64,000 nt of DNA, taken from positions 3,039,281-3,103,280 of the forward strand of contig NZ_CP102577.1 of NCBI RefSeq assembly GCF_042231735.1, given 5' to 3'. Shown here in pieces: positions 10,152 through 35,354 of this stretch. Origin of the DNA: Corallococcus exercitus (lineage in GTDB: Bacteria; Myxococcota; Myxococcia; Myxococcales; Myxococcaceae). The notes below the pieces were generated by a model. The model did no database searches and was not told the origin of the DNA. It saw only the letters and a program-made list of their open reading frames with translations. The translations under genes were made by a program, and so were the position numbers. The first letter of the stretch is position 1; each line of letters begins with the position of its first letter.

Positions 10152-12434
10152 TCAGTCCGCGTAGGCCGGGAGGTCGGCCAGTCGAATCTGCAGCTTCGTC
10201 ACCTCGCCCGGACGAATGGGAGCGGACAACAGCTTGCTCGTCCCACCGGGGTCCTGCGGGTCCACCACGCGCAGCCGGTACGTCCCGATGGGCAGTGGGA
10301 ACTTGATGAGCGGGGACGTGCCCAGCTGCGTGGCGCCGTCGAACACCGCCGCGTTCTTCGGCACCGTGTAGAGCGTCAGCCAGCCCAGGCCCGCCTTCGC
10401 CGCGCCATGCGAGGTGGAGGTGTCGAGCACCTCCGGGTTCTCGGTCTGCGTGACGGTGGTGACGGGCTCCGGAGGCCACTCCGAGGGCTCGGGCTTCGCG
10501 GGGCGCGGCTCGGCCTTCGCCACCGCGGGCGCGGCGGGAGTGGCGGCCGGAGCACTGGGGGCCGGCTTCGTCTTGCGGCCACCCTTGCCCGCGGGCGTCT
10601 TCTTCGTGTCGACGGTCGTGGCGTCCACCACGGGCTCGGACGGAGGCGGCTCCACCTCCGGCGTCTTCTGGGGCTCCGGGGTTTCGGTCTTCTGGACGAA
10701 GCCCGGCGGAGGACCGGAGGGCTTCGGCGGCCACGCGCCGTTCGCGGCGGGGTCCACGGGCGGGGCCGGATCCAGCTCCGCCTTCACCCACTGCTTCGCG
10801 GAGTCGTACGCGGGCATGAACAGGCGGCGCACGGGCTCGAGCGTCGCCGCGTAGCCCACGCCCCCCAGGATGAGGAGCAGCAGCAGCCGCATGCCCCAGC
10901 CGGAGCTTTCGCGGGCAGGCGCGGGCGCGGGAGGCGCTTCGGCGACCTCCTCCTCCTCATGGCGGGACGGCCGCGCGGTGCCCCGCGCCGGACGGGTGCG
11001 GAAGCGCTGCGTCTGGAGATCGCTGGGCGGATCCATCAGCGGCCCTGACGGGGGCGCGCCGCGGGCCTCGGCGGGTTCGGGCCTCGCGATGGGACGTGCC
11101 CGCGAGGGCCGCACGGCGTCAGCGGGAGGACGGATGACCCGGGGAATGGGCGCCGCGTCCGAACCCGAGGGCCGCTGTGCTCGCGGGGTGACCGTCGGCG
11201 TGTTGACGCGGGAGGCGCGGGCCTCGGGGGCTTCAGCGGCGGGGCGCGGGGTCGCGCGCGGGGCGGGCGTCGCGGACTCGGTCGCGGTGCGGCGGACGGG
11301 CGTGGGCTTGAAGGACGCGGCGACGTCCGGCTGCGGGGCTTCCGCGTGCGGCGACTTCACCTGCGCGGTGGCCGCGGCGGCGGCTTGATCCGTGCCCTCC
11401 TCGGCCTGGAGCGCACCGGCGGCCTCGCTGACGCGGGCGTCCTCGGCGCGGCTGGCCAGCTCCAGGAGGGTGCGCGTCTTCTGGCGCTTCTCCTCGAAGA
11501 GCTCGCCCATGACGGCGGTCATCTGGTCTTCGTCGAACAGCTCCGCGCCCAGCGTGGCCTCGATGGCGCGCGCCATCTCCCGGCAGGTGCCGAAGCGCTG
11601 GGCCGCGTCGCGCGACAGCGCCTTGAGCACCACCGCTTCCAGGGCCTCCGGCACGGCCGCGTTGAGCGAGCGCGGCGCGGGGATGTCCCCGTCCACGATC
11701 TGCATCATCACGGCCGCCTCGCCCGGCGCGTTGAACAGGCGCTGTCCGGCCAGCAGCTCGTGGAACATCACCCCCGTGGAGAACTGGTCGCTGCGGCCAT
11801 CCAGGTCCTTGTTGCGCACCTGCTCCGGGGACATGTACCCGCTGGTCCCCTTCACGGTGCCCACCTGCGTGCGGCCCAGCTTGCCGCGCGCCTTGGCGAT
11901 GCCGAAGTCGATCACCTTCACGACGCCGTCGTAGGTGAGCATCACGTTCTTCGGCGACACGTCGCGGTGCACCACCGCCACGGGGCGGCCCGACGGATCC
12001 ATGAAGTGGTGGGCGTAGTGCAGGCCCAGGCACGTGTCGCGGATGACGCGCGCGCTGAAGCCCAGCGGCAGCGCGTACTTGCGCCGCTCCGCCATCTTCA
12101 CCACCTGCTCCAGGTTCTGGCCGGGCAGGAACTCCATGGCGAGGTACAGCTCGCCGTCCTCCTCGCCCAGGTCGAACACCTGTCCGATGTTCGCGTGCGA
12201 GAAGGCCGCGGTGATGCGCGCCTCGTCGAGGAACATCTTGACGAACTGGTCGTCCTTCTTGATGTCGGGGAGGATCTGCTTCACCGCCACGAACTTGCGG
12301 AAGCCACCGGGGCCGGAGGTGAACGCGAGGAACAGCTCCGCCATCCCTCCCATCGAGAGGCGCGTCAGGATCTCGTACTTTCCGATGCGCCGCCCCCGGT
12401 CGGGATCTTCTCCGGCGCCACCCTGCATGCTCAT
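10152..12434 (-). CDS. Ser/Thr protein kinase with Pro-rich linker and C-terminal PEGA-like domain
   Basis: The Hanks kinase core (IGKYEILTRLSMGGMAELF ... HRDVSPKNVML ... DFGIAK ... SGYMSPEQ) begins at MSMQGG (ATG 12434). A long P/A/E-rich region follows, then a C-terminal TVPKNAAVFDGATQLGTSPL...GTYRLRV PEGA-like beta domain. Confidence 0.8.
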   Translation of the reverse strand: MSMQGGAGEDPDRGRRIGKYEILTRLSMGGMAELFLAFTSGPGGFRKFVAVKQILPDIKKDDQFVKMFLDEARITAAFSHANIGQVFDLGEEDGELYLAMEFLPGQNLEQVVKMAERRKYALPLGFSARVIRDTCLGLHYAHHFMDPSGRPVAVVHRDVSPKNVMLTYDGVVKVIDFGIAKARGKLGRTQVGTVKGTSGYMSPEQVRNKDLDGRSDQFSTGVMFHELLAGQRLFNAPGEAAVMMQIVDGDIPAPRSLNAAVPEALEAVVLKALSRDAAQRFGTCREMARAIEATLGAELFDEDQMTAVMGELFEEKRQKTRTLLELASRAEDARVSEAAGALQAEEGTDQAAAAATAQVKSPHAEAPQPDVAASFKPTPVRRTATESATPAPRATPRPAAEAPEARASRVNTPTVTPRAQRPSGSDAAPIPRVIRPPADAVRPSRARPIARPEPAEARGAPPSGPLMDPPSDLQTQRFRTRPARGTARPSRHEEEEVAEAPPAPAPARESSGWGMRLLLLLILGGVGYAATLEPVRRLFMPAYDSAKQWVKAELDPAPPVDPAANGAWPPKPSGPPPGFVQKTETPEPQKTPEVEPPPSEPVVDATTVDTKKTPAGKGGRKTKPAPSAPAATPAAPAVAKAEPRPAKPEPSEWPPEPVTTVTQTENPEVLDTSTSHGAAKAGLGWLTLYTVPKNAAVFDGATQLGTSPLIKFPLPIGTYRLRVVDPQDPGGTSKLLSAPIRPGEVTKLQIRLADLPAYAD

Positions 12435-12529: not shown

Positions 12530-13318
12530 TTAGGCACCGAACCGCTGGCGCCGCACGTCGAGCATCCAGCCTTCGAGGGCGGCCACGGCCGCCGGCGGTG
12601 GCTCCAGGGGCAACACGGAGGCCGCGTCCGCCGCATCCAGCACCGCGAAGGCGCGCGCCACCTCCTGCTGCCACTGCTCGCTGAGCGCGTCGGTCAGCTC
12701 GATGCGCTCACCGCTCCGCTTGCGCTCCACCAGCGCGCGGGCCTCGCCAAAGCCATACGGCTCCAGCAGCGCGGTGACGTCCGTCTCCACCTCGCCCGTG
12801 CGCAGCGCATGCGTTCCGGTGAGCGTGGTGCGCAGCACGTACAGCAGCTTCTTCACGGAGCGGAAGCCGCTCTTCTCCCACTCGCGGAGCTGGCCCTGCG
12901 CGAAGCCGCGGTAGTGCCGGTGGATGCGCCGCGACAGCACGGCCCGGACCCGCGGCCGCAGCGTCTCCAGCTCCGGCAGGGCCCGCACGGTGATGGCGCC
13001 CAGCACCCGCTCGATGTAGTTGCCGTTGCCCTGGAGGATGCCCAGCAGCACGGGCTGCAGCTCGTTGGACGAGTAGTCCACCTCCACGCCCTCCAGCACC
13101 TCCAGCCGCTCCGCCGGCACGTGCCGGGGCTGGAGCCCGAGGAGCGCGGCGGTGGGCGCGATGTGGATGGCCTTGAGGTCCAGGTCGCTGTCCTGCGACG
13201 GGAAGCCGTACGCATGCGCGCCGGACAGCGAGATGACCAGGTGCTCGCGATGGAGGGACTCGGCGTCCAGCACGCGGTCCGCCATCCGCTCCTGATGTTC
13301 CGTCACCCTGCCCTTCAT
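12530..13318 (-). CDS. predicted nucleotidyltransferase (Pol-beta superfamily, YcgL/RlaP-like)
   Basis: Contains the GS-x10-DxD-type motif LSGAHAYGFPSQDSDLDL and a downstream HYRGFAQGQL helix. The start ATG 13318 (MKGRV) overlaps the upstream stop as ATGA. The ORF-track N-terminal extension is an overlap with the upstream gene. Confidence 0.55.
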   Translation of the reverse strand: MKGRVTEHQERMADRVLDAESLHREHLVISLSGAHAYGFPSQDSDLDLKAIHIAPTAALLGLQPRHVPAERLEVLEGVEVDYSSNELQPVLLGILQGNGNYIERVLGAITVRALPELETLRPRVRAVLSRRIHRHYRGFAQGQLREWEKSGFRSVKKLLYVLRTTLTGTHALRTGEVETDVTALLEPYGFGEARALVERKRSGERIELTDALSEQWQQEVARAFAVLDAADAASVLPLEPPPAAVAALEGWMLDVRRQRFGA

Positions 13319-14604
13319 TCCGTCCCTCCTTCCAGTGCCGGGGCTTCCGGCGCATCGCTGCCCAGCGGTCCAGGCGTCTTCAAGACCCAGCGCCGAGCCA
13401 CTTCCTCCCCTACCCGCCGCAGCAACCGGTCCGCGCGGGCGTAGTCCGGATGCTCCGGCAACCGGCTCTCGCGGTGCGCGGCCTCCAGCTCCGGCGCCAT
13501 CGCCTCGGCGTCGCGCAGCACGTCCTCCAGTGGCACCTGCCCGCCCTTGATGTCGAGCAGCCGCGCCTTCAACGCCCCCGTCGCCTCGAAGGAGGGCACG
13601 CCGTCGCGCAGCCACCCCGTCGCCAGCGCCACCAGCCGCAGCAGGTTGTAGGCGTTCTTCGGCCGCAGCTCCCGGGCGGACGGAGGACGCTGCCCGCCGC
13701 CGCGTGCGTACGCGGTGAGCGCCGCGAAGTCGTTCGCCGCGAGCAGCCCCTGGTCCCAGAGCGAGCGGTAGAGCTGCTTCACGTACGTCTTCGCCGCGAG
13801 CACCCCGTCCTCGGGCGTGGGCGCGGCGCGGGGCGACACCGCGGCCAGGCGACGGGCCACCTCGTCCAGGTCGGGCGTGGGCTCCTCGCACAGCCACGCG
13901 AGGAGCAGGTCGCGGTGCTCGGCCAGCCGCTGGCTGCGGGTGAGCTTGTCGAGCTGGCTCATGGCGTAGCGCCCGAAGCTGCCGAAGATGGCCTTGGAGA
14001 CGAACGCCTCGCGTGCCTCCAGCACCCACGTGCCCAGCTCATCCACCGGCGTCGCGCCGGGGACGAAGAGGGTCTCCAGCGTGTTCGGATCCGCGCGCAG
14101 CGCCTGCTCCACCGTCTTGCGGACCTCCCAGTACGTGGTGCTGCCATCCGCGCTCACCAGGTCCTGCGGCGGCTGCCCCAGGCCCAGCGTCCACGGCAGG
14201 GGCAGTGCGAAGACACCGCGAACGTCCACGTCGGAGCGCTCATCCGCGAGCCCCCACGCGTGACTGCCCACGCGCGTCTCCAGCACCACGCACGGCCGCA
14301 ACGCATTCCAGGCGGCCTCACGCCGCTGGGCGAACTGCACCTGTCCCGTGCGCCGGGGCACCAGCTCATCGCGCGCGAACCACACCTCGCCCACGCCGAC
14401 GATCTGCACGTCGAAGCCGCCGTCATGCGCACGCACCACGCGGCCGATCACGCCCTGTGGAATCCGGCGCCCCCCGGACGCCACGCGCTCCACGCGCGTC
14501 GTGACCTCCGTGCCGTGCGGCAGGGGCACGGACAGCCGGTCGATCTGCTCCAATCCCCGGACCCGCGCCGGGGTGGAGGAAGCGGTCTCTCGGGTGTCAC
14601 TCAT
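13315..14604 (-). CDS. predicted nucleotidyltransferase paralog with N-terminal extra domain
   Basis: Motif GSHAWGLADERSDVDVRGVF plus FGSFGRYAMSQL, parallel to the downstream gene. ATG 14604 (MSDTRE) is preceded by AGGAGG with 5-nt spacing. Confidence 0.55.
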   Translation of the reverse strand: MSDTRETASSTPARVRGLEQIDRLSVPLPHGTEVTTRVERVASGGRRIPQGVIGRVVRAHDGGFDVQIVGVGEVWFARDELVPRRTGQVQFAQRREAAWNALRPCVVLETRVGSHAWGLADERSDVDVRGVFALPLPWTLGLGQPPQDLVSADGSTTYWEVRKTVEQALRADPNTLETLFVPGATPVDELGTWVLEAREAFVSKAIFGSFGRYAMSQLDKLTRSQRLAEHRDLLLAWLCEEPTPDLDEVARRLAAVSPRAAPTPEDGVLAAKTYVKQLYRSLWDQGLLAANDFAALTAYARGGGQRPPSARELRPKNAYNLLRLVALATGWLRDGVPSFEATGALKARLLDIKGGQVPLEDVLRDAEAMAPELEAAHRESRLPEHPDYARADRLLRRVGEEVARRWVLKTPGPLGSDAPEAPALEGGTE

Positions 14605-14682
14605 CGGTCCCTCCTGCGTGGGATGGTGGGCCACGGTGGACGCAGCGAAGCACGCGAGCCTGACCCGGCACGGCGCTTCCCG

Positions 14683-17674: not shown

Positions 17675-18139
17675 TCAGAACGCGGCCAGGAAGCGGCCCA
17701 GGGTGGTGGCGACGTTGCGCTTCTCTTCGGCGCGGGCCTTCACGGCGGGCACGAGCGTGGGCTCCCGGAAGAACACGGGCAGCGTCTTGAGCCACTCGTC
17801 CTGCTGCGCGGGCGCCGCGGCGCGCCAGTTCGCGTTGTCCATCATGAAGCCCAGCGACTCCACGAACGCGAGCGCGTCGTCCTCGTCCTCACGCAGCTCG
17901 TCCGCGGACTGGATGCGCCGGCCGGACACGTACACCGCGCAGTCCCCCGCTTCCACGAGGTACAGGTACACGAAGACGCCCGCGCCCTGCCCTCCGCGCA
18001 GCCCCACCACGAAGGCCTGCGCGGGCCCGGCCTGCTTGCCGGGAATCGCCACGTGCGGCGTGTTGAGGGACAGGTGCAGCGCGAGCACCTGGTCGCGGTT
18101 CGCGGGGAGGCCCCGGTAGCGCTCGTCGATGGTGAACAC
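17675..18139 (-). CDS. hypothetical protein
   Basis: 154 aa ORF with good GC3 bias and no recognisable motif. Confidence 0.45.
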   Translation of the reverse strand: MFTIDERYRGLPANRDQVLALHLSLNTPHVAIPGKQAGPAQAFVVGLRGGQGAGVFVYLYLVEAGDCAVYVSGRRIQSADELREDEDDALAFVESLGFMMDNANWRAAAPAQQDEWLKTLPVFFREPTLVPAVKARAEEKRNVATTLGRFLAAF

Positions 18140-20854: not shown

Positions 20855-25069
<4,215 letters not shown>

Positions 25070-25201
25070 GTTGCCTCCGAAAACTTATGAGCGCTCAGGG
25101 CGCCAAACGTTTCGGGCCCCCGCCCTGCGCCCGGCCAACCGCCCCCTCCACGAGGAAGCAGCCAGCCGGTCAGGCGGGCGCACCGGCTTCTTTGAAAAGG
25201 C

Positions 25202-29428
<4,227 letters not shown>

Positions 29429-29499
29429 TCGGTCTCCGGGGACGGCTGCTCGGGCGGGGCAAACTTCAGTAACGCGCGGCGGCGCCGGGAAATTTGGCA

Positions 29500-29544
29500 A
29501 ATGTCAAATGGGCAAAGCCGGCGCCCCAGCAAAGGGAGCGCCGG
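29500..29544 (-). terminator. rplL-rpoB intergenic attenuator hairpin
   Basis: Minus strand CCGGCGC-loop-GCGCCGG followed by CTTTGCCCATTTGACATT. The position matches the known rplL-rpoB attenuator of other bacteria. Confidence 0.4.
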
Positions 29545-29609
29545 CCTGCTCATCCGATCAGCAGGCTGCCCGGGATTTCCCGGAAGAACAGGGCAGCCCC
29601 TGTACAGAA

Positions 29610-29981
29610 CTACTTGATCTCGACGGTGGCGCCAGCCGCGGTGAGCTGGTCCTTGATCTTCTTGGCGTCGTCCTTGTTGACGCCTTCCTTGACCGTCTTG
29701 GGCGCGCCCTCGACCAGGTCCTTGGCCTCCTTCAGGCCCAGGCCGGTGATGGCGCGGATCTCCTTGATGACGTTGATCTTGTTGGCGCCGGCGTTCGCCA
29801 GCACCACGTTGAACTCCGTCTTCTCCTCGACAGGAGCAGCGGCGGCGGCGGGGCCAGCGGCGGCAACGGCCACGGCGGCGGCGGAAACGCCCCACTTCGC
29901 CTCAAGCTGCTTCACGAGCTCGGCCGCTTCCATGACGGTGAGCGAGGAGAGCTGGTCGACAATCGAATTCAGGTCAGCCAT
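29610..29981 (-). CDS. rplL: 50S ribosomal protein L7/L12
   Basis: 123 aa, [32 protein letters not shown]. Confidence 0.95.
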
Positions 29982-30073
29982 TGAACTGTGTCCTTCTGCG
30001 GTTGACTAACGGCGGGCGACCCGTCTGGGCTGCCACGCCGAAGAGGTTGCGGTAGAAAAACTTCTCGGGATGA

Positions 30074-30595
30074 TTACTGCCCCTGCGACTTGTCCGCGTT
30101 GGCCTGCAGCACCCGCGCGAGCTGCGACCCGGGGGCCGCGATGGTCCGAACCAGCTTGCCTGCCGGCTGGTTGAGCATGCCGAGCAACTGCCCGCGCAGC
30201 TCGTTGAGGCCCGGCATCTTCGCCAGCGCCTTCACGCCGTTGACGTCAATCTTCTTGCCGTCCACCACGGCGCTACGGACCTTGATGGTCTCCATGTCCT
30301 TGATGAAATCCATCAGGATCTTCGCAGGAGCCACCACGTCGTCGTAGCTGATGCACAGGGCCACGGGACCGGTGAAGTCATCCGAAATCACGGAGACGGA
30401 CGTGCCCTCAGCGGCACGGCGCGCCAGCGTGTTCTTGATGACCTTGTACTCGACCTTGCCCTCGCGGAACTTGCGACGCAGCTTGGTGACGGTCTCCACG
30501 TCCACCTTGGAGAACTCGGCGACAACCGCCGTCTTCGTCCGGGCGAACTTCTCGTGGAGCTCCTTGATCATCTCTTCCTTCTCGCTCTTCAGCAC
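30074..30595 (-). CDS. rplJ: 50S ribosomal protein L10
   Basis: 173 aa, conserved L10. Confidence 0.93.
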   Translation of the reverse strand: MLKSEKEEMIKELHEKFARTKTAVVAEFSKVDVETVTKLRRKFREGKVEYKVIKNTLARRAAEGTSVSVISDDFTGPVALCISYDDVVAPAKILMDFIKDMETIKVRSAVVDGKKIDVNGVKALAKMPGLNELRGQLLGMLNQPAGKLVRTIAAPGSQLARVLQANADKSQGQ

Positions 30596-30992
30596 CTTGA
30601 CTCACCTCCTTCATGGCCCGACCTGACGGTCGGGCGTGATGCCTGGGCCAAAGTGGCAGAGCGAGAGGGGGGCCTCCGAGAGGCACCACACCGCACCTCC
30701 AGTCTCGGCAGGGCTGACCTTGCGGTCGTTTGAACCAGGAGTGGATGGACGGCCCGACCGGTTGCCCGGTTCCCAACGGACGCGTCTTCTCCCTTCCAGG
30801 TCCCTGCTGTCATGAACCAGGTCGAAACGCCGCGTCTCTCGACATGGCGCTCCAATTGCAAAAGCCGGGGGCCTATACCCCCGGCTTTCGCAAAGATCCA
30901 GCACTTTCTATCGAGCTGACATTCTCCGGGCGATGGGACTGACGCTCCCCGTCAGGAAGCGCACCCTTCCCTGCCCGTCCTGACACCCGCGA
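30596..30992 (-). promoter_or_regulatory. rplJ (L10) leader region with terminator-like hairpin after rplA
   Basis: A 397-nt untranslated gap lies between rplA and rplJ, the classic position of the L10(L12)4 autoregulatory leader. Hairpin AAAGCCGGGGG-cctata-CCCCCGGCTTT at 30860-30887 is followed (minus strand) by TTTTGCAATT. Confidence 0.5.
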
Positions 30993-31706
30993 CTAGCGGT
31001 GACGCGCCAGGATTTCCGTGGTGTCGAGCTTGATGCCCGGCCCCATGGTCGTCGAGATGGCGATGCCCTTCAGGTACACGCCCTTGGCGGTGGCCGGCTT
31101 GAGCTTCATCACCAGGTCCACCAGCGCGTTGAAGTTCGCCTCGAGCTTGTCCGCGGCGAAGGAGGCCTTGCCCATCTTCGCGTGGACGATGCCCGCCTTC
31201 TCCGCGCGGAAGTCCACCTTACCGCCCTTGGAGTCGCGGATGGCCTTGGCGACGTCCATGGTCACCGTGCCGACCTTCGGGTTCGGCATGAGGCCACGGG
31301 GACCGAGCACCTTACCGAGGCGGCCGACGATGCCCATCATGTCCGGCGTCGCGATGACGGTGTCGAAGTCGAGGAAGCCCTCCTCGATGCGCTTCTGGAG
31401 GTCCTCGGCGCCCACGATGTCGGCGCCGGCATTGGCGGCCTCGGTGGCGCGCTCACCCTTGGCGAACACGGCCACGCGCACGGTGGCGCCGGTGCCGTGC
31501 GGGAGCACCACGGCGCCACGGACCATCTGGTCCGCGTGCTTCGGGTCCACGCCCAGGTTGATGGCGACGTCGACCGTCTGGTCGTACTTCGTCGCGCGGG
31601 TCTCGACCGTCTTCTTCAGCAGCGCGAAGCCCTCGGCGACGGCGTAGCGCTTGTTGCGGTCCACCAGCTCGTTGGACGCGCGGAACTTCTTTCCATTGGT
31701 AGCCAT
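30993..31706 (-). CDS. rplA: 50S ribosomal protein L1
   Basis: ATG 31706 gives [17 protein letters not shown]... Confidence 0.93.
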
Positions 31707-31734
31707 GGCAGGAATCCTTGAGAGATGGGGCGGG

Positions 31735-32181
31735 CTAACCGACGACGTCGATGCCCATGGAGCGCGCGGTGCCGGCAATGGTGTTCATGCAGGCTTCGAT
31801 GGACGAGGCGGTGGTGTCCTGGATCTTCTTCTTGGCGATCTCTTCCACCTGCTGGCGGGTGATCTGCCCCACCTTCTCCTTGCCCGGCTTCTTCGCGCCC
31901 GAACCCTTCTTCTTCTCCGTGTGGAGACCCGCGGCCTTCTTGATGAGGATCGCGGCGGGAGGGGTCTTCAGGATGAAGGTGAAGGAGCGGTCCTGATACA
32001 CGGTGATGATCACCGGGATGATCAGACCCTCCTTGGCCTCCGCCTGCGTCTTGGCGTTGAACTGCTTGCAGAACTCCATGATGTTCACGCCCTGCTGACC
32101 GAGCGCGGGACCAATCGGCGGGGCGGGGTTCGCCTTGCCGGCGGGGATCTGCAACTTGACCTGACCTGTGACCTTCTTCAT
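31735..32181 (-). CDS. rplK: 50S ribosomal protein L11
   Basis: 148 aa, [37 protein letters not shown]. Confidence 0.95.
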
Positions 32182-32289
32182 CGGCGGACTGCTGCCTTTC
32201 GAGAGGGTGGTTCCGACGGGCCGCCAGACGGGGCGACCCTCCCACCCGTTGATCCGCGCCCGGGTGACGGACGCGGAAGACTGGGGAAA

Positions 32290-32838
32290 CTAGCCGGTGG
32301 TCTTCTCCACCTGCATGAAGTCGAGCTCCACGGGGGTCGCACGGCCGAAGATGCTGACGAGCACGCGCACGCGGCCCTTCTCCGGGTTGACCTCTTCCAC
32401 GGTGCCATTGAAGTTCGCGAACGGGCCGTCGATGACGCGCACCGTGTCGCTGGTCTCGAACTGGACCTTGGGCTTGGCCTTGTGGGCGCCCTCGGTGACC
32501 TGCGCGGTGAGACGCTCGACCTCGCGGTCCGACATGGGCCGGGGCTGCTCGTTCTGGCCGACGCCCGGGAACCCCGTCACCTTGGAGGTGTTCTTCACCA
32601 GGTGGACGGTGGTGTCGCTGAGCTCCATCTGGACGAAGATGTAGCCCGGAAACAGCTTGCGGCGGGTGGTCTTCTTCTCGCCGTTCACCATCTCCACGAC
32701 CTGCTCCATGGGGATGAGGATCTCACCAATCAGATCCTGGTCCTGCAGGCCCTTGAGGCGCACCTGCTCTTCCAGGTTCTTCTTCGCCTGGTTCTCGTAG
32801 TTCGAGTAGGTCTGGACCGTGAACCATTTCTTCGCCAT
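32290..32838 (-). CDS. nusG: transcription termination/antitermination factor NusG
   Basis: ATG 32838 gives MAKKWFTVQTYSNYENQAKKNLEEQ; TAATG overlap with the secE stop. Confidence 0.9.
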   Translation of the reverse strand: MAKKWFTVQTYSNYENQAKKNLEEQVRLKGLQDQDLIGEILIPMEQVVEMVNGEKKTTRRKLFPGYIFVQMELSDTTVHLVKNTSKVTGFPGVGQNEQPRPMSDREVERLTAQVTEGAHKAKPKVQFETSDTVRVIDGPFANFNGTVEEVNPEKGRVRVLVSIFGRATPVELDFMQVEKTTG

Positions 32839-33281
32839 TACAGCTTCCCCCACAGGGCAGGCAGCCACTCCACCATCAAGTTGTAGGCGACGGTGTCGAT
32901 GCAGAAGAGCAGAACGGCCGCCACCAGCGAGGCGACGACCACGGCCATGGTCGACGCACGGGTCTCCGACCAGGTAGGCCAGGTGACCTTCATCAGCTCG
33001 GACGCCACGTCGATGGAGAGGGTGTGCGTACGGGGGTGGAAGTAGGCTGCCAGCACCAGGGCCAGGGCCGCCGCGTAGCCCACCAGCGTCGACACGCGCC
33101 AGCCGAGCCCTTCGAAGAGCTCCACGTCGTTCCAGCCGAACCGGCTCCAGAGCAACCCGAAGACGTGCTCCAGGAAGAGGGCCAGGACGATGCCGGTGAC
33201 GAGATAGAAGATGACCACGAGCCGCTTGGGGTCGATGCCCGAGCGGTTAGCCTGCTGGCTGGCCTCAGATGCCGTCGCCAT
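32838..33281 (-). CDS. secE: preprotein translocase subunit SecE
   Basis: Conserved position upstream of nusG; C-terminal TM helix. Confidence 0.75.
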   Translation of the reverse strand: MATASEASQQANRSGIDPKRLVVIFYLVTGIVLALFLEHVFGLLWSRFGWNDVELFEGLGWRVSTLVGYAAALALVLAAYFHPRTHTLSIDVASELMKVTWPTWSETRASTMAVVVASLVAAVLLFCIDTVAYNLMVEWLPALWGKL

Positions 33282-33314
33282 GGTGCCTCACGAGGGACTG
33301 CGGAAGCGGGACTG

Positions 33315-33360
33315 CGAAAAGGCAGGGACCCCCGGCACCGCTCGGTACCGGGGGTCCCTG
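33315..33360 (-). terminator. rho-independent terminator between tRNA-Trp and secE
   Basis: Minus strand 13-bp stem CAGGGACCCCCGG...CCGGGGGTCCCTG followed by CCTTTTCG. Confidence 0.55.
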
Positions 33361-33369
33361 TACTGAAGC

Positions 33370-33445
33370 TGGCAGGCCAGGAGGGATTCGAACCCCCAAC
33401 ACGCGGATTTGGAGACCGCTGCTCTACCGTTGGAGCTACTGGCCT
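33370..33445 (-). tRNA. tRNA-Trp (CCA)
   Basis: Minus-strand sequence AGGCCAGTAGCTCCAACGGTAGAGCAGCGGTCTCCAAATCCGC...GGTTCGAATCCCTCCTGGCCTGCCA: anticodon loop CT-CCA-AA, T-loop GGTTCGAATCC, encoded CCA. Confidence 0.85.
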
Positions 33446-33467
33446 AAACCTTCATGGAACGGACGAC

Positions 33468-33632
33468 CTAGACCTTGCCTTCCTTGTGGTCCGTGTGCTT
33501 GCGGCACCGAGGACAGAACTTGCTCAGCTCGAGCTTGTCCTGGCTCTTCCGCTTGTTCTTCGTGGTCGTGTAGTTCCGCTCTTTGCACGTGGTGCACTCG
33601 AGCGAGATGATGGAACGGTTACCCTTAGGCAT
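33468..33632 (-). CDS. rpmG: 50S ribosomal protein L33
   Basis: Not in the ORF track because it is short. Translates to [54 protein letters not shown]; conserved position between tuf and tRNA-Trp. Confidence 0.8.
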
Positions 33633-33726
33633 GGTTCATTTCACCAGATGCGAGAAGGGAAGGCTACAAAAGCAGCCCTCCCCTCCGCAACTCAGTGCCC
33701 GTGAAAGCCGGTCGGCGGGAAGCCGA

Positions 33727-34917
<1,191 letters not shown>

Positions 34918-34933
34918 GACACTCCTCGAAAAA

Positions 34934-35009
34934 TGGAGCCCTGAACCAGGATTGAACTGGTGACCTCATCCTTACCAAGGATGCGCTCTGCCAACTGAGC
35001 TATCAGGGC
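34934..35009 (-). tRNA. tRNA-Thr (GGT)
   Basis: Minus strand GCCCTGATAGCTCAGTTGGCAGAGCGCATCCTTGGTAAGGATG...GGTTCAATCCTGGTTCAGGGCTCCA. Confidence 0.85.
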
Positions 35010-35030
35010 TTGGCGATTCACTACAACGGT

Positions 35031-35106
<76 letters not shown>

Positions 35107-35115
35107 ATTGCCGAG

Positions 35116-35199
35116 TGGAGAGAGGTGGATTCGAACCACCGTAGGCGTAGAGCCGGCAGATTTACAGTCTGCTCCCTTTGGCCGCTCGGGCATCTCTCC
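35116..35199 (-). tRNA. tRNA-Tyr (GTA), long variable arm
   Basis: Minus strand GGAGAGATGCCCGAGCGGCCAAAGGGAGCAGACTGTAAATCTGC-variable arm-GGTTCGAATCCACCTCTCTCCA. The CCA end is not fully encoded. Confidence 0.8.
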
Positions 35200-35280
35200 A
35201 GATATTCGCTTGTGGTGCTGCGTGCTGCTCCCTACACCATCTCGCTGCGTCTCGGGCCCTTTTCCGCGGCCCGTCCTACC

Positions 35281-35354
35281 TGGCCGGCGGCGGGATTTGA
35301 ACCCGCGACCTACTGATTACAAATCAGTTGCTCTACCGACTGAGCTACACCGGC
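35281..35354 (-). tRNA. tRNA-Thr (TGT)
   Basis: Minus strand GCCGGTGTAGCTCAGTCGGTAGAGCAACTGATTTGTAATCAGTAGGTCGCGGGTTCAAATCCCGCCGCCGGCCA. Confidence 0.8.

Follow-up and report, generated by a model that had tools for sequence, protein, structure and literature searches.

In the stretch of 64,000 nucleotides of the Corallococcus exercitus genome analysed here (contig NZ_CP102577.1, positions 3,039,281 to 3,103,280; hereafter the window), two adjacent genes on the minus strand each encode a nucleotidyltransferase (NTase) of the DNA polymerase beta (Pol-beta) type, and the question raised by this locus is what such a pair would do together. We refer to the upstream gene and its product as A and to the downstream one as B. 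The original prediction left their substrate and function open; we found them less open than that, given that orthologous pairs in other lineages lie in Hen1-A-B-Pnkp operons and beside Rtc genes. RlaPs are template-independent enzymes of the Pol-beta fold that extend the 3'-OH of RNA by one or two nucleotides (PMC12776372), and the reading that we favour, and hold to be fairly probable, is that A and B are a two-component, probably heteromeric, RNA 3'-end nucleotidyltransferase of the RlaP type, co-translated and, in Corallococcus, free-standing. The family and fold of A and B, the conservation of the pair, the overlap of the stop and start codons, the fusions, and the RNA-repair context in other lineages were shown here.

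Organization of the gene pair

Gene A (13315..14604, minus strand) encodes an A-type RlaP paralogue of 429 amino acids with an N-terminal beta-barrel, a Pol-beta NTase domain and a helical domain carrying an insertion. Gene B (12530..13318, minus strand) encodes a B-type RlaP paralogue of 262 amino acids, with an NTase domain at residues ~25-113 and a helical domain at ~116-260. The reading frame of A begins with an ATG at 14604 and has a possible GTG start further upstream at 14634; we placed the start at the ATG because the Corallococcus orthologues, 97% identical, are also 429 amino acids long. Reading of the sequence located the predicted strong Shine-Dalgarno AGGAGG of gene A (14610..14615, minus strand, running from 14615 to 14610), separated from the ATG by a 5-nucleotide spacer.

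The predicted coupling of the two genes through an ATGA was also borne out (13315..13318, minus strand), the TGA of A occupying 13317-13315 and the ATG of B 13318-13316. In addition, gene B has an AGGAGG of its own (13325..13330, minus strand), which lies within the final codons of A (…LEGGTE*), 6 nucleotides ahead of the ATG of B, and GAGGAG/GAAGAG-like sequences are found at the equivalent place before the overlap in many orthologous loci. Two elements therefore join in the coupling of A and B, the overlapping stop and start codons and a dedicated ribosome-binding site for B within A. Such an arrangement would let both proteins be produced jointly, through coupled translation of a single transcript.

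Family membership and homology of the two proteins

Both proteins matched the Pfam family PF10127, reportedly named RlaP in a 2016 paper by Burroughs and Aravind, and it was the sole Pfam match of each, with 73.7 bits (E 2.4e-20) for A and 89.7 bits (E 3.3e-25) for B, the cut-off of the family being 23 bits. The match covers B over its full length and A only over profile positions 20-144, because the insertion in A interrupts the alignment; the remainder of A is homologous to B by hhalign. NCBIfam gave zero matches for A or B, a sequence search of the PDB gave no match for either, and PADLOC returned none for A and only a chance-level match to Cas11f for B (E 0.038). The Pfam matches, the AlphaFold2 models and the structural matches described below all agree with the identification of the two proteins as RlaP-type Pol-beta nucleotidyltransferase paralogues. 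YcgL, a name that the original prediction had coupled to RlaP, belongs, as far as is known, to an unrelated family of small Escherichia coli proteins.

When A was compared directly with B by BLAST, the alignment was limited to the G[SA]...DxD segment and its surroundings, 33 residues in all. The informative comparison was a profile-profile alignment by hhalign, in which the alignments of both subfamilies had been trimmed free of fusion proteins, and this gave a probability of 99.3% and an E of 8e-20, with A residues 70-405 spanning the whole of B. It also confirmed the helix motif that had been proposed downstream in both proteins, F210-G-R-Y-A-M-S-Q-L of A being aligned to Y136-R-G-F-A-Q-G-Q-L of B. 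A and B belong to separate orthology groups of ancient divergence and are not recent duplicates.

Conservation and natural fusion of the pair

The genome scan used one genome per species and yielded 80 loci, all of them in Myxococcota, and gene B directly follows gene A in about 68 of the 80. When genome and metagenome loci were taken together, the start of B overlapped the stop of A by 4 nucleotides in 68 of approximately 113 split loci, and by 1-19 nucleotides in about 18 more. This overlap is kept down to amino-acid identities of ~50%, and its recurrence in so many split loci argues that it is not due to chance.

With A as the query, exhaustive searching gave 2789 cluster representatives (E values up to 1e-3), and about 25 of the best 150 were A-B fusions of 640-725 amino acids. 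In these proteins the first ~400 residues are A-like, including the barrel, and the last ~240 match B with E values from 1e-25 to 1e-77. A search with a fusion profile added more than 100 further clusters (90% identity), and the order was invariably A then B. The fusions are single called open reading frames (ORFs) on long contigs, and the named ones come from metagenome-assembled genomes (MAGs) of Myxococcota or 'Deltaproteobacteria'. The adjacency of A and B within flanks that vary from genus to genus, the 4-nucleotide overlaps and the fixed order of the fusions together argue that A and B are one unit. On the pattern of the natural fusions, this unit would probably act as a heteromer.

A different type of fusion was also seen, a 504-amino-acid protein (P0350/P0398) with two NTase domains and without the N-terminal barrel, of which both halves match B (E values of 6e-15 and 2e-36). 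Since a protein annotated from a MAG of Planctomycetota falls in the same cluster, RlaP pairs in fused form may well occur outside Myxococcota too.

These results bear on the idea, put forward in the original prediction, that the pair might be a toxin-antitoxin-like module or might nucleotidylylate proteins; the types considered here were MNT-HEPN modules and DrrA-type AMPylases. An MNT-HEPN system consists of a small MNT NTase and a HEPN RNase, and Pfam detected neither family here; both proteins are full-length RlaP NTases, of 262 and 429 amino acids. It would be unusual for a toxin to be fused to its antitoxin in over 100 clusters, and the pair has a core-like distribution. The RlaP enzymes of Pseudomonas fluorescens and Pseudomonas aeruginosa, moreover, labelled neither DNA nor protein (PMC12776372). 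We consider this explanation extremely unlikely.

RNA-repair context of orthologous pairs

Three of the orthologous loci are on megaplasmids of Deinococcus. Those of D. gobiensis (plasmid P2, DGO_RS18445-18460) and D. ficus (pDFI2) carry an operon in the order Hen1, NT1 (304 and 318 amino acids, respectively), NT2 (264 and 259 amino acids) and Pnkp, with 4-nucleotide overlaps between the genes. Against the A-core and B profiles, respectively, NT1 reached 195 and 63 bits and NT2 reached 27 and 202 bits. The corresponding scores of two canonical single RlaPs were intermediate, at 98-115 and 56-73 bits. These scores suggest that the split between A and B is an ancient paralogy.

Other orthologous pairs are also found close to RNA-repair genes. 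The metagenome locus L100 has the gene order Hen1 - A/B - Pnkp, and in a Myxococcota MAG (L067) the pair lies 1.8 kb from an RtcR gene that is itself divergent from RtcB-RtcA. At locus L081 (6022-10046), the gene of an A-B fusion and that of a sigma-54 activator of the RtcR type (PF06956 + Sigma54_activat) are divergently transcribed, with no RtcB or RtcA nearby, and at L077 and L150 an RtcR or RtcB gene is found at 5-8 kb. The presence of orthologous pairs in Hen1/Pnkp and Rtc loci links A and B to RNA repair. A neighbourhood with RNA-ligase or RNA-repair genes, the trait to which RlaP owes its name, was observed in Deinococcus and L100, and near L067, L081, L077 and L150; it was lacking in the window and in the Myxococcaceae loci. 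A single RlaP on a Clostridium botulinum plasmid adjoins a CCA-adding enzyme and is near RtcB.

Some features of these loci are recorded here in their own right. The 370-bp intergenic region of L081 contains a perfect TGGCAC and no good -12 element, and no convincing sigma-54 site was found upstream of this RtcR-adjacent fusion gene or of gene A. In D. ficus (L166, 8685-9398) an extra hypothetical gene of 237 amino acids, with 4-nucleotide overlaps on both sides, is inserted between NT2 and Pnkp; it is not in D. gobiensis and only remnants are seen in D. taeanensis. Plasmid p_TS293_5 of D. taeanensis (L171, 1482-7204) carries an AAA ATPase, a Thg1-family 3'-5' polymerase and Hen1-NT1-NT2, and its Pnkp has decayed to C-terminal remnants matching residues 755-847. 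This locus looks like an RNA-repair island.

Catalytic motifs

Invariance was judged in an alignment of 61 sequences for each subfamily. The DxD aspartates are invariant in both, and the fold is the expected one rather than an unrelated one. The A-types have as invariant residues G113, S114, S124, D125, D127, E160, E177, R212, Y213, Q217 and the RPKNAYNLLR motif. In the B-types G33, H35, G38, D43, S44, D45, D47, K49, E79 and D81 are invariant, as are G97, G99, N100, E103, H135, G138, K156, Y160 and R163, and the helical domain of B carries H135-Y-x-G-F.

The signature GS-x10-DxD, which had been assigned to both proteins, is complete in A (G113-S114, D125/D127); in B only the DxD part holds, the glycine being followed by alanine (G33-A34). 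The motif of B is S32-G33-A34-x10-D45-L-D47, and the residue after the invariant glycine is alanine in 49, serine in 10 and glycine in 2 of the 61 sequences. G-S is present in the two canonical single RlaPs, together with an [E/D]-x-D in the strand that follows the hairpin, and three aspartates are strictly conserved in RlaPs (PMC12776372). The B-types keep E79-x-D81, aligned with the canonical [E/D]xD, and have G-A in place of G-S, whereas the A-types keep G-S but only one of the two acids of the [E/D]-x-D. S155 of A aligns with the third conserved aspartate of B and of the canonical RlaPs. The window falls in the split-gene clade, and D153-G-S155 is present in every sequence seen from that clade; column 155 is D or E in the A domains of 41 of 45 fused-clade sequences, and Deinococcus NT1 has E..Q at A columns 153 and 155. 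As far as aligned sequences can tell, A and B each depart from the canonical centre in a different motif, and the two deviations are complementary. We did not adopt the idea of A as a mere dead pseudoenzyme, since G-S, DxD, D148, D153 and E160 are invariant in its clade.

One unit or two enzymes

Several observations weigh against the reading of A and B as one RNA-repair unit. The window contains no RNA ligase, Pnkp, Hen1, RtcR, RtcB or RtcA, and an RNA-repair gene was found near the pair in only about 8 of 172 loci. Gene A occurs with no B within 10 kb in genomes of the Hyalangium group (L037-L045), and the B-type occurs alone in Nonomuraea, Embleya and Halomicrobium. The RlaPs that have been characterised consist of one protein each, and the preprint describing them (PMC12776372) makes no mention of tandem, paired or dimeric forms. 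Finally, A may be non-catalytic, with S155 in place of the third aspartate, although D153, two residues earlier and on the same face of the strand, is invariant in its clade and may substitute for it.

Perhaps, then, A and B each work independently as an RlaP-type enzyme, with differing RNA or nucleotide preferences, the two being co-expressed from one operon and forming no complex. That each type is solitary somewhere, A in Hyalangium and B in actinomycetes and haloarchaea, would fit such an arrangement, as would the activity of P. fluorescens RlaP as a single protein and the invariance of the DxD pair in both A and B. However, it would leave the many independent A-B fusions in a fixed order and the very strong conservation of the 4-nucleotide overlap without a ready explanation, and the complementary motif deviations, with A missing the third aspartate and B the serine of G-S, also speak against it. 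A solitary A may be dispensable, as hinted by the lone A gene of H. versicolor H56D21 (L043, 10001-11224), which has an in-frame stop at W159, the invariant tryptophan of a YWE motif, and is possibly a decaying gene. We therefore regard two independent enzymes as unlikely.

For the favoured reading of one two-component enzyme, we infer for A and B a physical complex, an RNA substrate, two active sites that share the work between them, and a role in repair in Corallococcus. A would contribute the KOW/Tudor-like barrel, likely to bind RNA, and an NTase centre in which the third canonical aspartate is missing, and B would contribute an NTase centre with all the canonical acids and with G-A instead of G-S. 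The likely task of this enzyme would be to rebuild 3' ends that have been trimmed in damaged RNAs, for example in tRNA, and the rebuilt ends could then be resealed by an RNA ligase encoded elsewhere in the genome.

A stricter form of this proposal is that A/B and the natural fusions are obligate asymmetric heterodimers with complementary degenerate centres. We put this forward tentatively, as possible though doubtful. In such a heterodimer A might recognise and position a specific damaged RNA while B does the chemistry; alternatively, the two sites might add successive, different nucleotides. If this were true, restoration of 3' nucleotides would be quasi-templated and more specific than that by a promiscuous single-chain RlaP, and the unit of the Myxococcaceae would be a free-standing housekeeping enzyme for maintenance of RNA ends, uncoupled from ligase operons.

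Domain architecture and predicted structures

The AlphaFold2 models had a mean predicted local distance difference test score (pLDDT) of 90.2 and a predicted template modelling score (pTM) of 0.83 for A, and of 94.1 and 0.91 for B. The N-terminal extension of A relative to B, for which ~110 amino acids had been predicted, does exist, but measures ~100 amino acids, and the folded part within it is a small KOW/Tudor/SH3-like beta-barrel at residues ~28-85 (14350..14523, minus strand). From its resemblance to KOW and Tudor domains, this barrel is likely to be an RNA-binding module. It is followed by the Pol-beta nucleotidyltransferase core (residues ~100-225; 13930..14307, minus strand), which contains G113-S114, D125-x-D127, D148, D153, S155, E160, D172 and E177.

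Next comes a helical insertion of ~80 amino acids (residues ~225-310; 13675..13932, minus strand), with helices at 246-256, 264-284 and 293-301 in the model. The insertion appears as a gap in the hhalign alignment and has no counterpart in B or in the Deinococcus A-types; the match of Deinococcus NT1 to the A profile skips this stretch. The C-terminal helical domain (residues ~311-408; 13381..13674, minus strand) carries the invariant motif R314-P-K-N-A-Y-N-L-L-R323.

The solved structures nearest to B by Foldseek were a 'nucleotidyltransferase-like protein' from the Joint Center for Structural Genomics (3c18), kanamycin nucleotidyltransferase, Hailong HalB, AAD(9)/AadA, Tam41 and LinB. Among viral models, B superposes over its full length on RlaP-like NTases of jumbo phages such as PaBG, phage G (gp218) and Eowyn, with TM-scores of 0.70-0.76. 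All the PDB and BFVD matches of the A and B models were NTases with the same layout, a Pol-beta NTase domain plus a helical domain. RlaP NTases are the most prevalent NTases of jumbo phages according to Iyer and colleagues (PMC7824862). In sequence, only weak phage matches were found (27-35% identity), and a phage origin of the pair was rejected on that account.

Neighbourhood of the pair in the window

The window has a G+C content of ~70%, and comparison of its proteins with those of Corallococcus species gave identities of 94-98%. Upstream of the pair, recO and the gene of a PfkB-family kinase lie on its strand, and downstream are a Ser/Thr protein kinase gene and glyQ/glyS. The original prediction had described the flanks as a sugar kinase and a Ser/Thr kinase rather than ligase or Pnkp partners. 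This is correct for the window, but these flanks (recO, pfkB, the Ser/Thr kinase and glyQ) are confined to nine Corallococcus loci (L001-L009), and orthologous pairs elsewhere do have Hen1, Pnkp or Rtc genes beside them. The missing ligase and Pnkp partners are a local trait of the Myxococcaceae.

In Myxococcus, Pyxidicoccus, Archangium, Cystobacter, Sorangium and others the pair is found in differing surroundings, with unrelated genes as neighbours in Myxococcus, Archangium and Hyalangium. Clustering of all the neighbouring ORFs gave no neighbour common to several genera, only synteny at the level of the genus. A Ser/Thr kinase gene was near the pair in 18 of about 155 loci, which is approximately chance level given the high density of such genes in myxobacterial genomes. 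A functional tie to the PfkB kinase, the Ser/Thr kinase, RecO or GlyQS was rejected, these flanks being kept solely in Corallococcus, and the two kinase neighbours are no guide to the function of the pair.

The same neighbourhood bears on whether the pair could synthesise a nucleotide or oligonucleotide signal, like Hailong HalB or a CD-NTase, for anti-phage or stress signalling, second-messenger synthesis having been among the earlier suggestions. B does resemble HalB in structure, as noted above. PADLOC, however, gave no meaningful match, there is no conserved effector or other partner gene beside the pair, and the position of the pair is fixed and core-like within each genus, here between recO/pfkB and the Ser/Thr kinase gene with glyQS. 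Orthologues lie in RNA-repair operons, and the sequence family is PF10127 and not a CD-NTase family. This explanation is in our opinion very unlikely. Like the protein-modifying and toxin-antitoxin options, it finds no support in a pair with PF10127 as its only Pfam family.

Other features of the window are as follows. The Ser/Thr kinase (10152-12410, minus strand), a neighbour of the pair in Corallococcus alone, begins with a Pkinase domain, continues with a low-complexity stretch that is very long and rich in Pro and Ala, and ends in a domain that has no Pfam match. An ORF of 154 amino acids (17675-18139, minus strand) between a tetratricopeptide-repeat protein gene and the next gene also has no Pfam match and is kept in the Corallococcus loci. 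At 20855-35354 (minus strand) there is a core housekeeping block, in which ORFs of 1404 and 1432 amino acids fit rpoC and rpoB and one of 396 amino acids fits tuf, identities suggested solely by ORF size and context. This block also contains tRNA-Thr/Tyr/Gly/Thr and tRNA-Trp genes and coincides with a stretch of lower G+C content (62-67% versus ~70%). The pair sits among housekeeping genes, the rpoBC region being ~6 kb from it and rpoBC, tuf and the tRNA cluster lying 6-20 kb away.

Comparison with known systems

Aminoglycoside nucleotidyltransferases resemble B in structure. The kanamycin nucleotidyltransferase ANT(4') (1kny, 6un8) has, like B, an NTase domain plus a helical domain, and was matched by Foldseek with E ~1e-5 and a TM-score of ~0.47. 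The sequence identity is 11-13%, with no Pfam family in common, and kanamycin nucleotidyltransferase, unlike A and B, acts on a small-molecule substrate and is a homodimer and not a pair of paralogues. In this dimer both subunits contribute to each active site, a precedent for an active unit of two chains.

The likeness of A and B to Hailong HalB (9dbh/9dbj) is structural only. HalB has 217 amino acids, has HalA as its effector partner and makes oligodeoxyadenylate, whereas the pair adjoins a PfkB kinase and a Ser/Thr kinase and has no HalA-like neighbour. A CD-NTase of a cyclic-oligonucleotide-based anti-phage signalling system (CBASS) would be marked by a defence hidden Markov model match and an adjacent effector, and neither was found here, the neighbours being PfkB, RecO, the Ser/Thr kinase and GlyQS.

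The RlaPs, including NrdC.11 of phage T4 and those of the jumbo phages, share with A and B the Pfam family and an N-terminal Pol-beta NTase domain followed by a C-terminal helical domain. RlaP is a single protein, whereas A and B are two distinct paralogues, co-encoded or fused. Relative to RlaP, A has in addition the KOW/Tudor-like barrel and the ~80-amino-acid insertion and is without the third aspartate where the alignment would place it, whereas the deviation of B is G-A. The RlaP genes of P. fluorescens and P. aeruginosa are part of rtcB-rlaP-rtcA operons (bioRxiv, December 2025, PMC12776372), and the Corallococcus pair differs in having no ligase gene nearby. The enzymes of these two species add 1-2 nucleoside monophosphates (NMP) or deoxynucleoside monophosphates (dNMP) to the RNA 3'-OH, with a preference for Mn2+, and RlaP can restore aminoacylation of a tRNA that was short of a nucleotide before ligation (PMC12776372).

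Also close to the Corallococcus pair is the Deinococcus operon, with NT1 as an A-type with the barrel and NT2 as a B-type with G-A and ExD, in the same order and with 4-nucleotide overlaps. The identity of NT1 and NT2 to A and B is ~32-35%, and NT1 (304 amino acids) is without the 80-amino-acid insertion. In Deinococcus the pair has Hen1 on one side and Pnkp on the other, whereas in Corallococcus it is free-standing.

The RlaP family is thus known, but to our knowledge the paired or fused form, with its KOW/Tudor-like domain and complementary motif changes, is undescribed in the literature searched. RlaP itself has been characterised only recently, as a single-chain and rather unspecific extender of RNA 3' ends, and its route to useful repair products was left open by the authors (PMC12776372). 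In comparison, the two-paralogue or fused form suggests that many bacteria use a more elaborate, and possibly more specific, enzyme to restore RNA ends.

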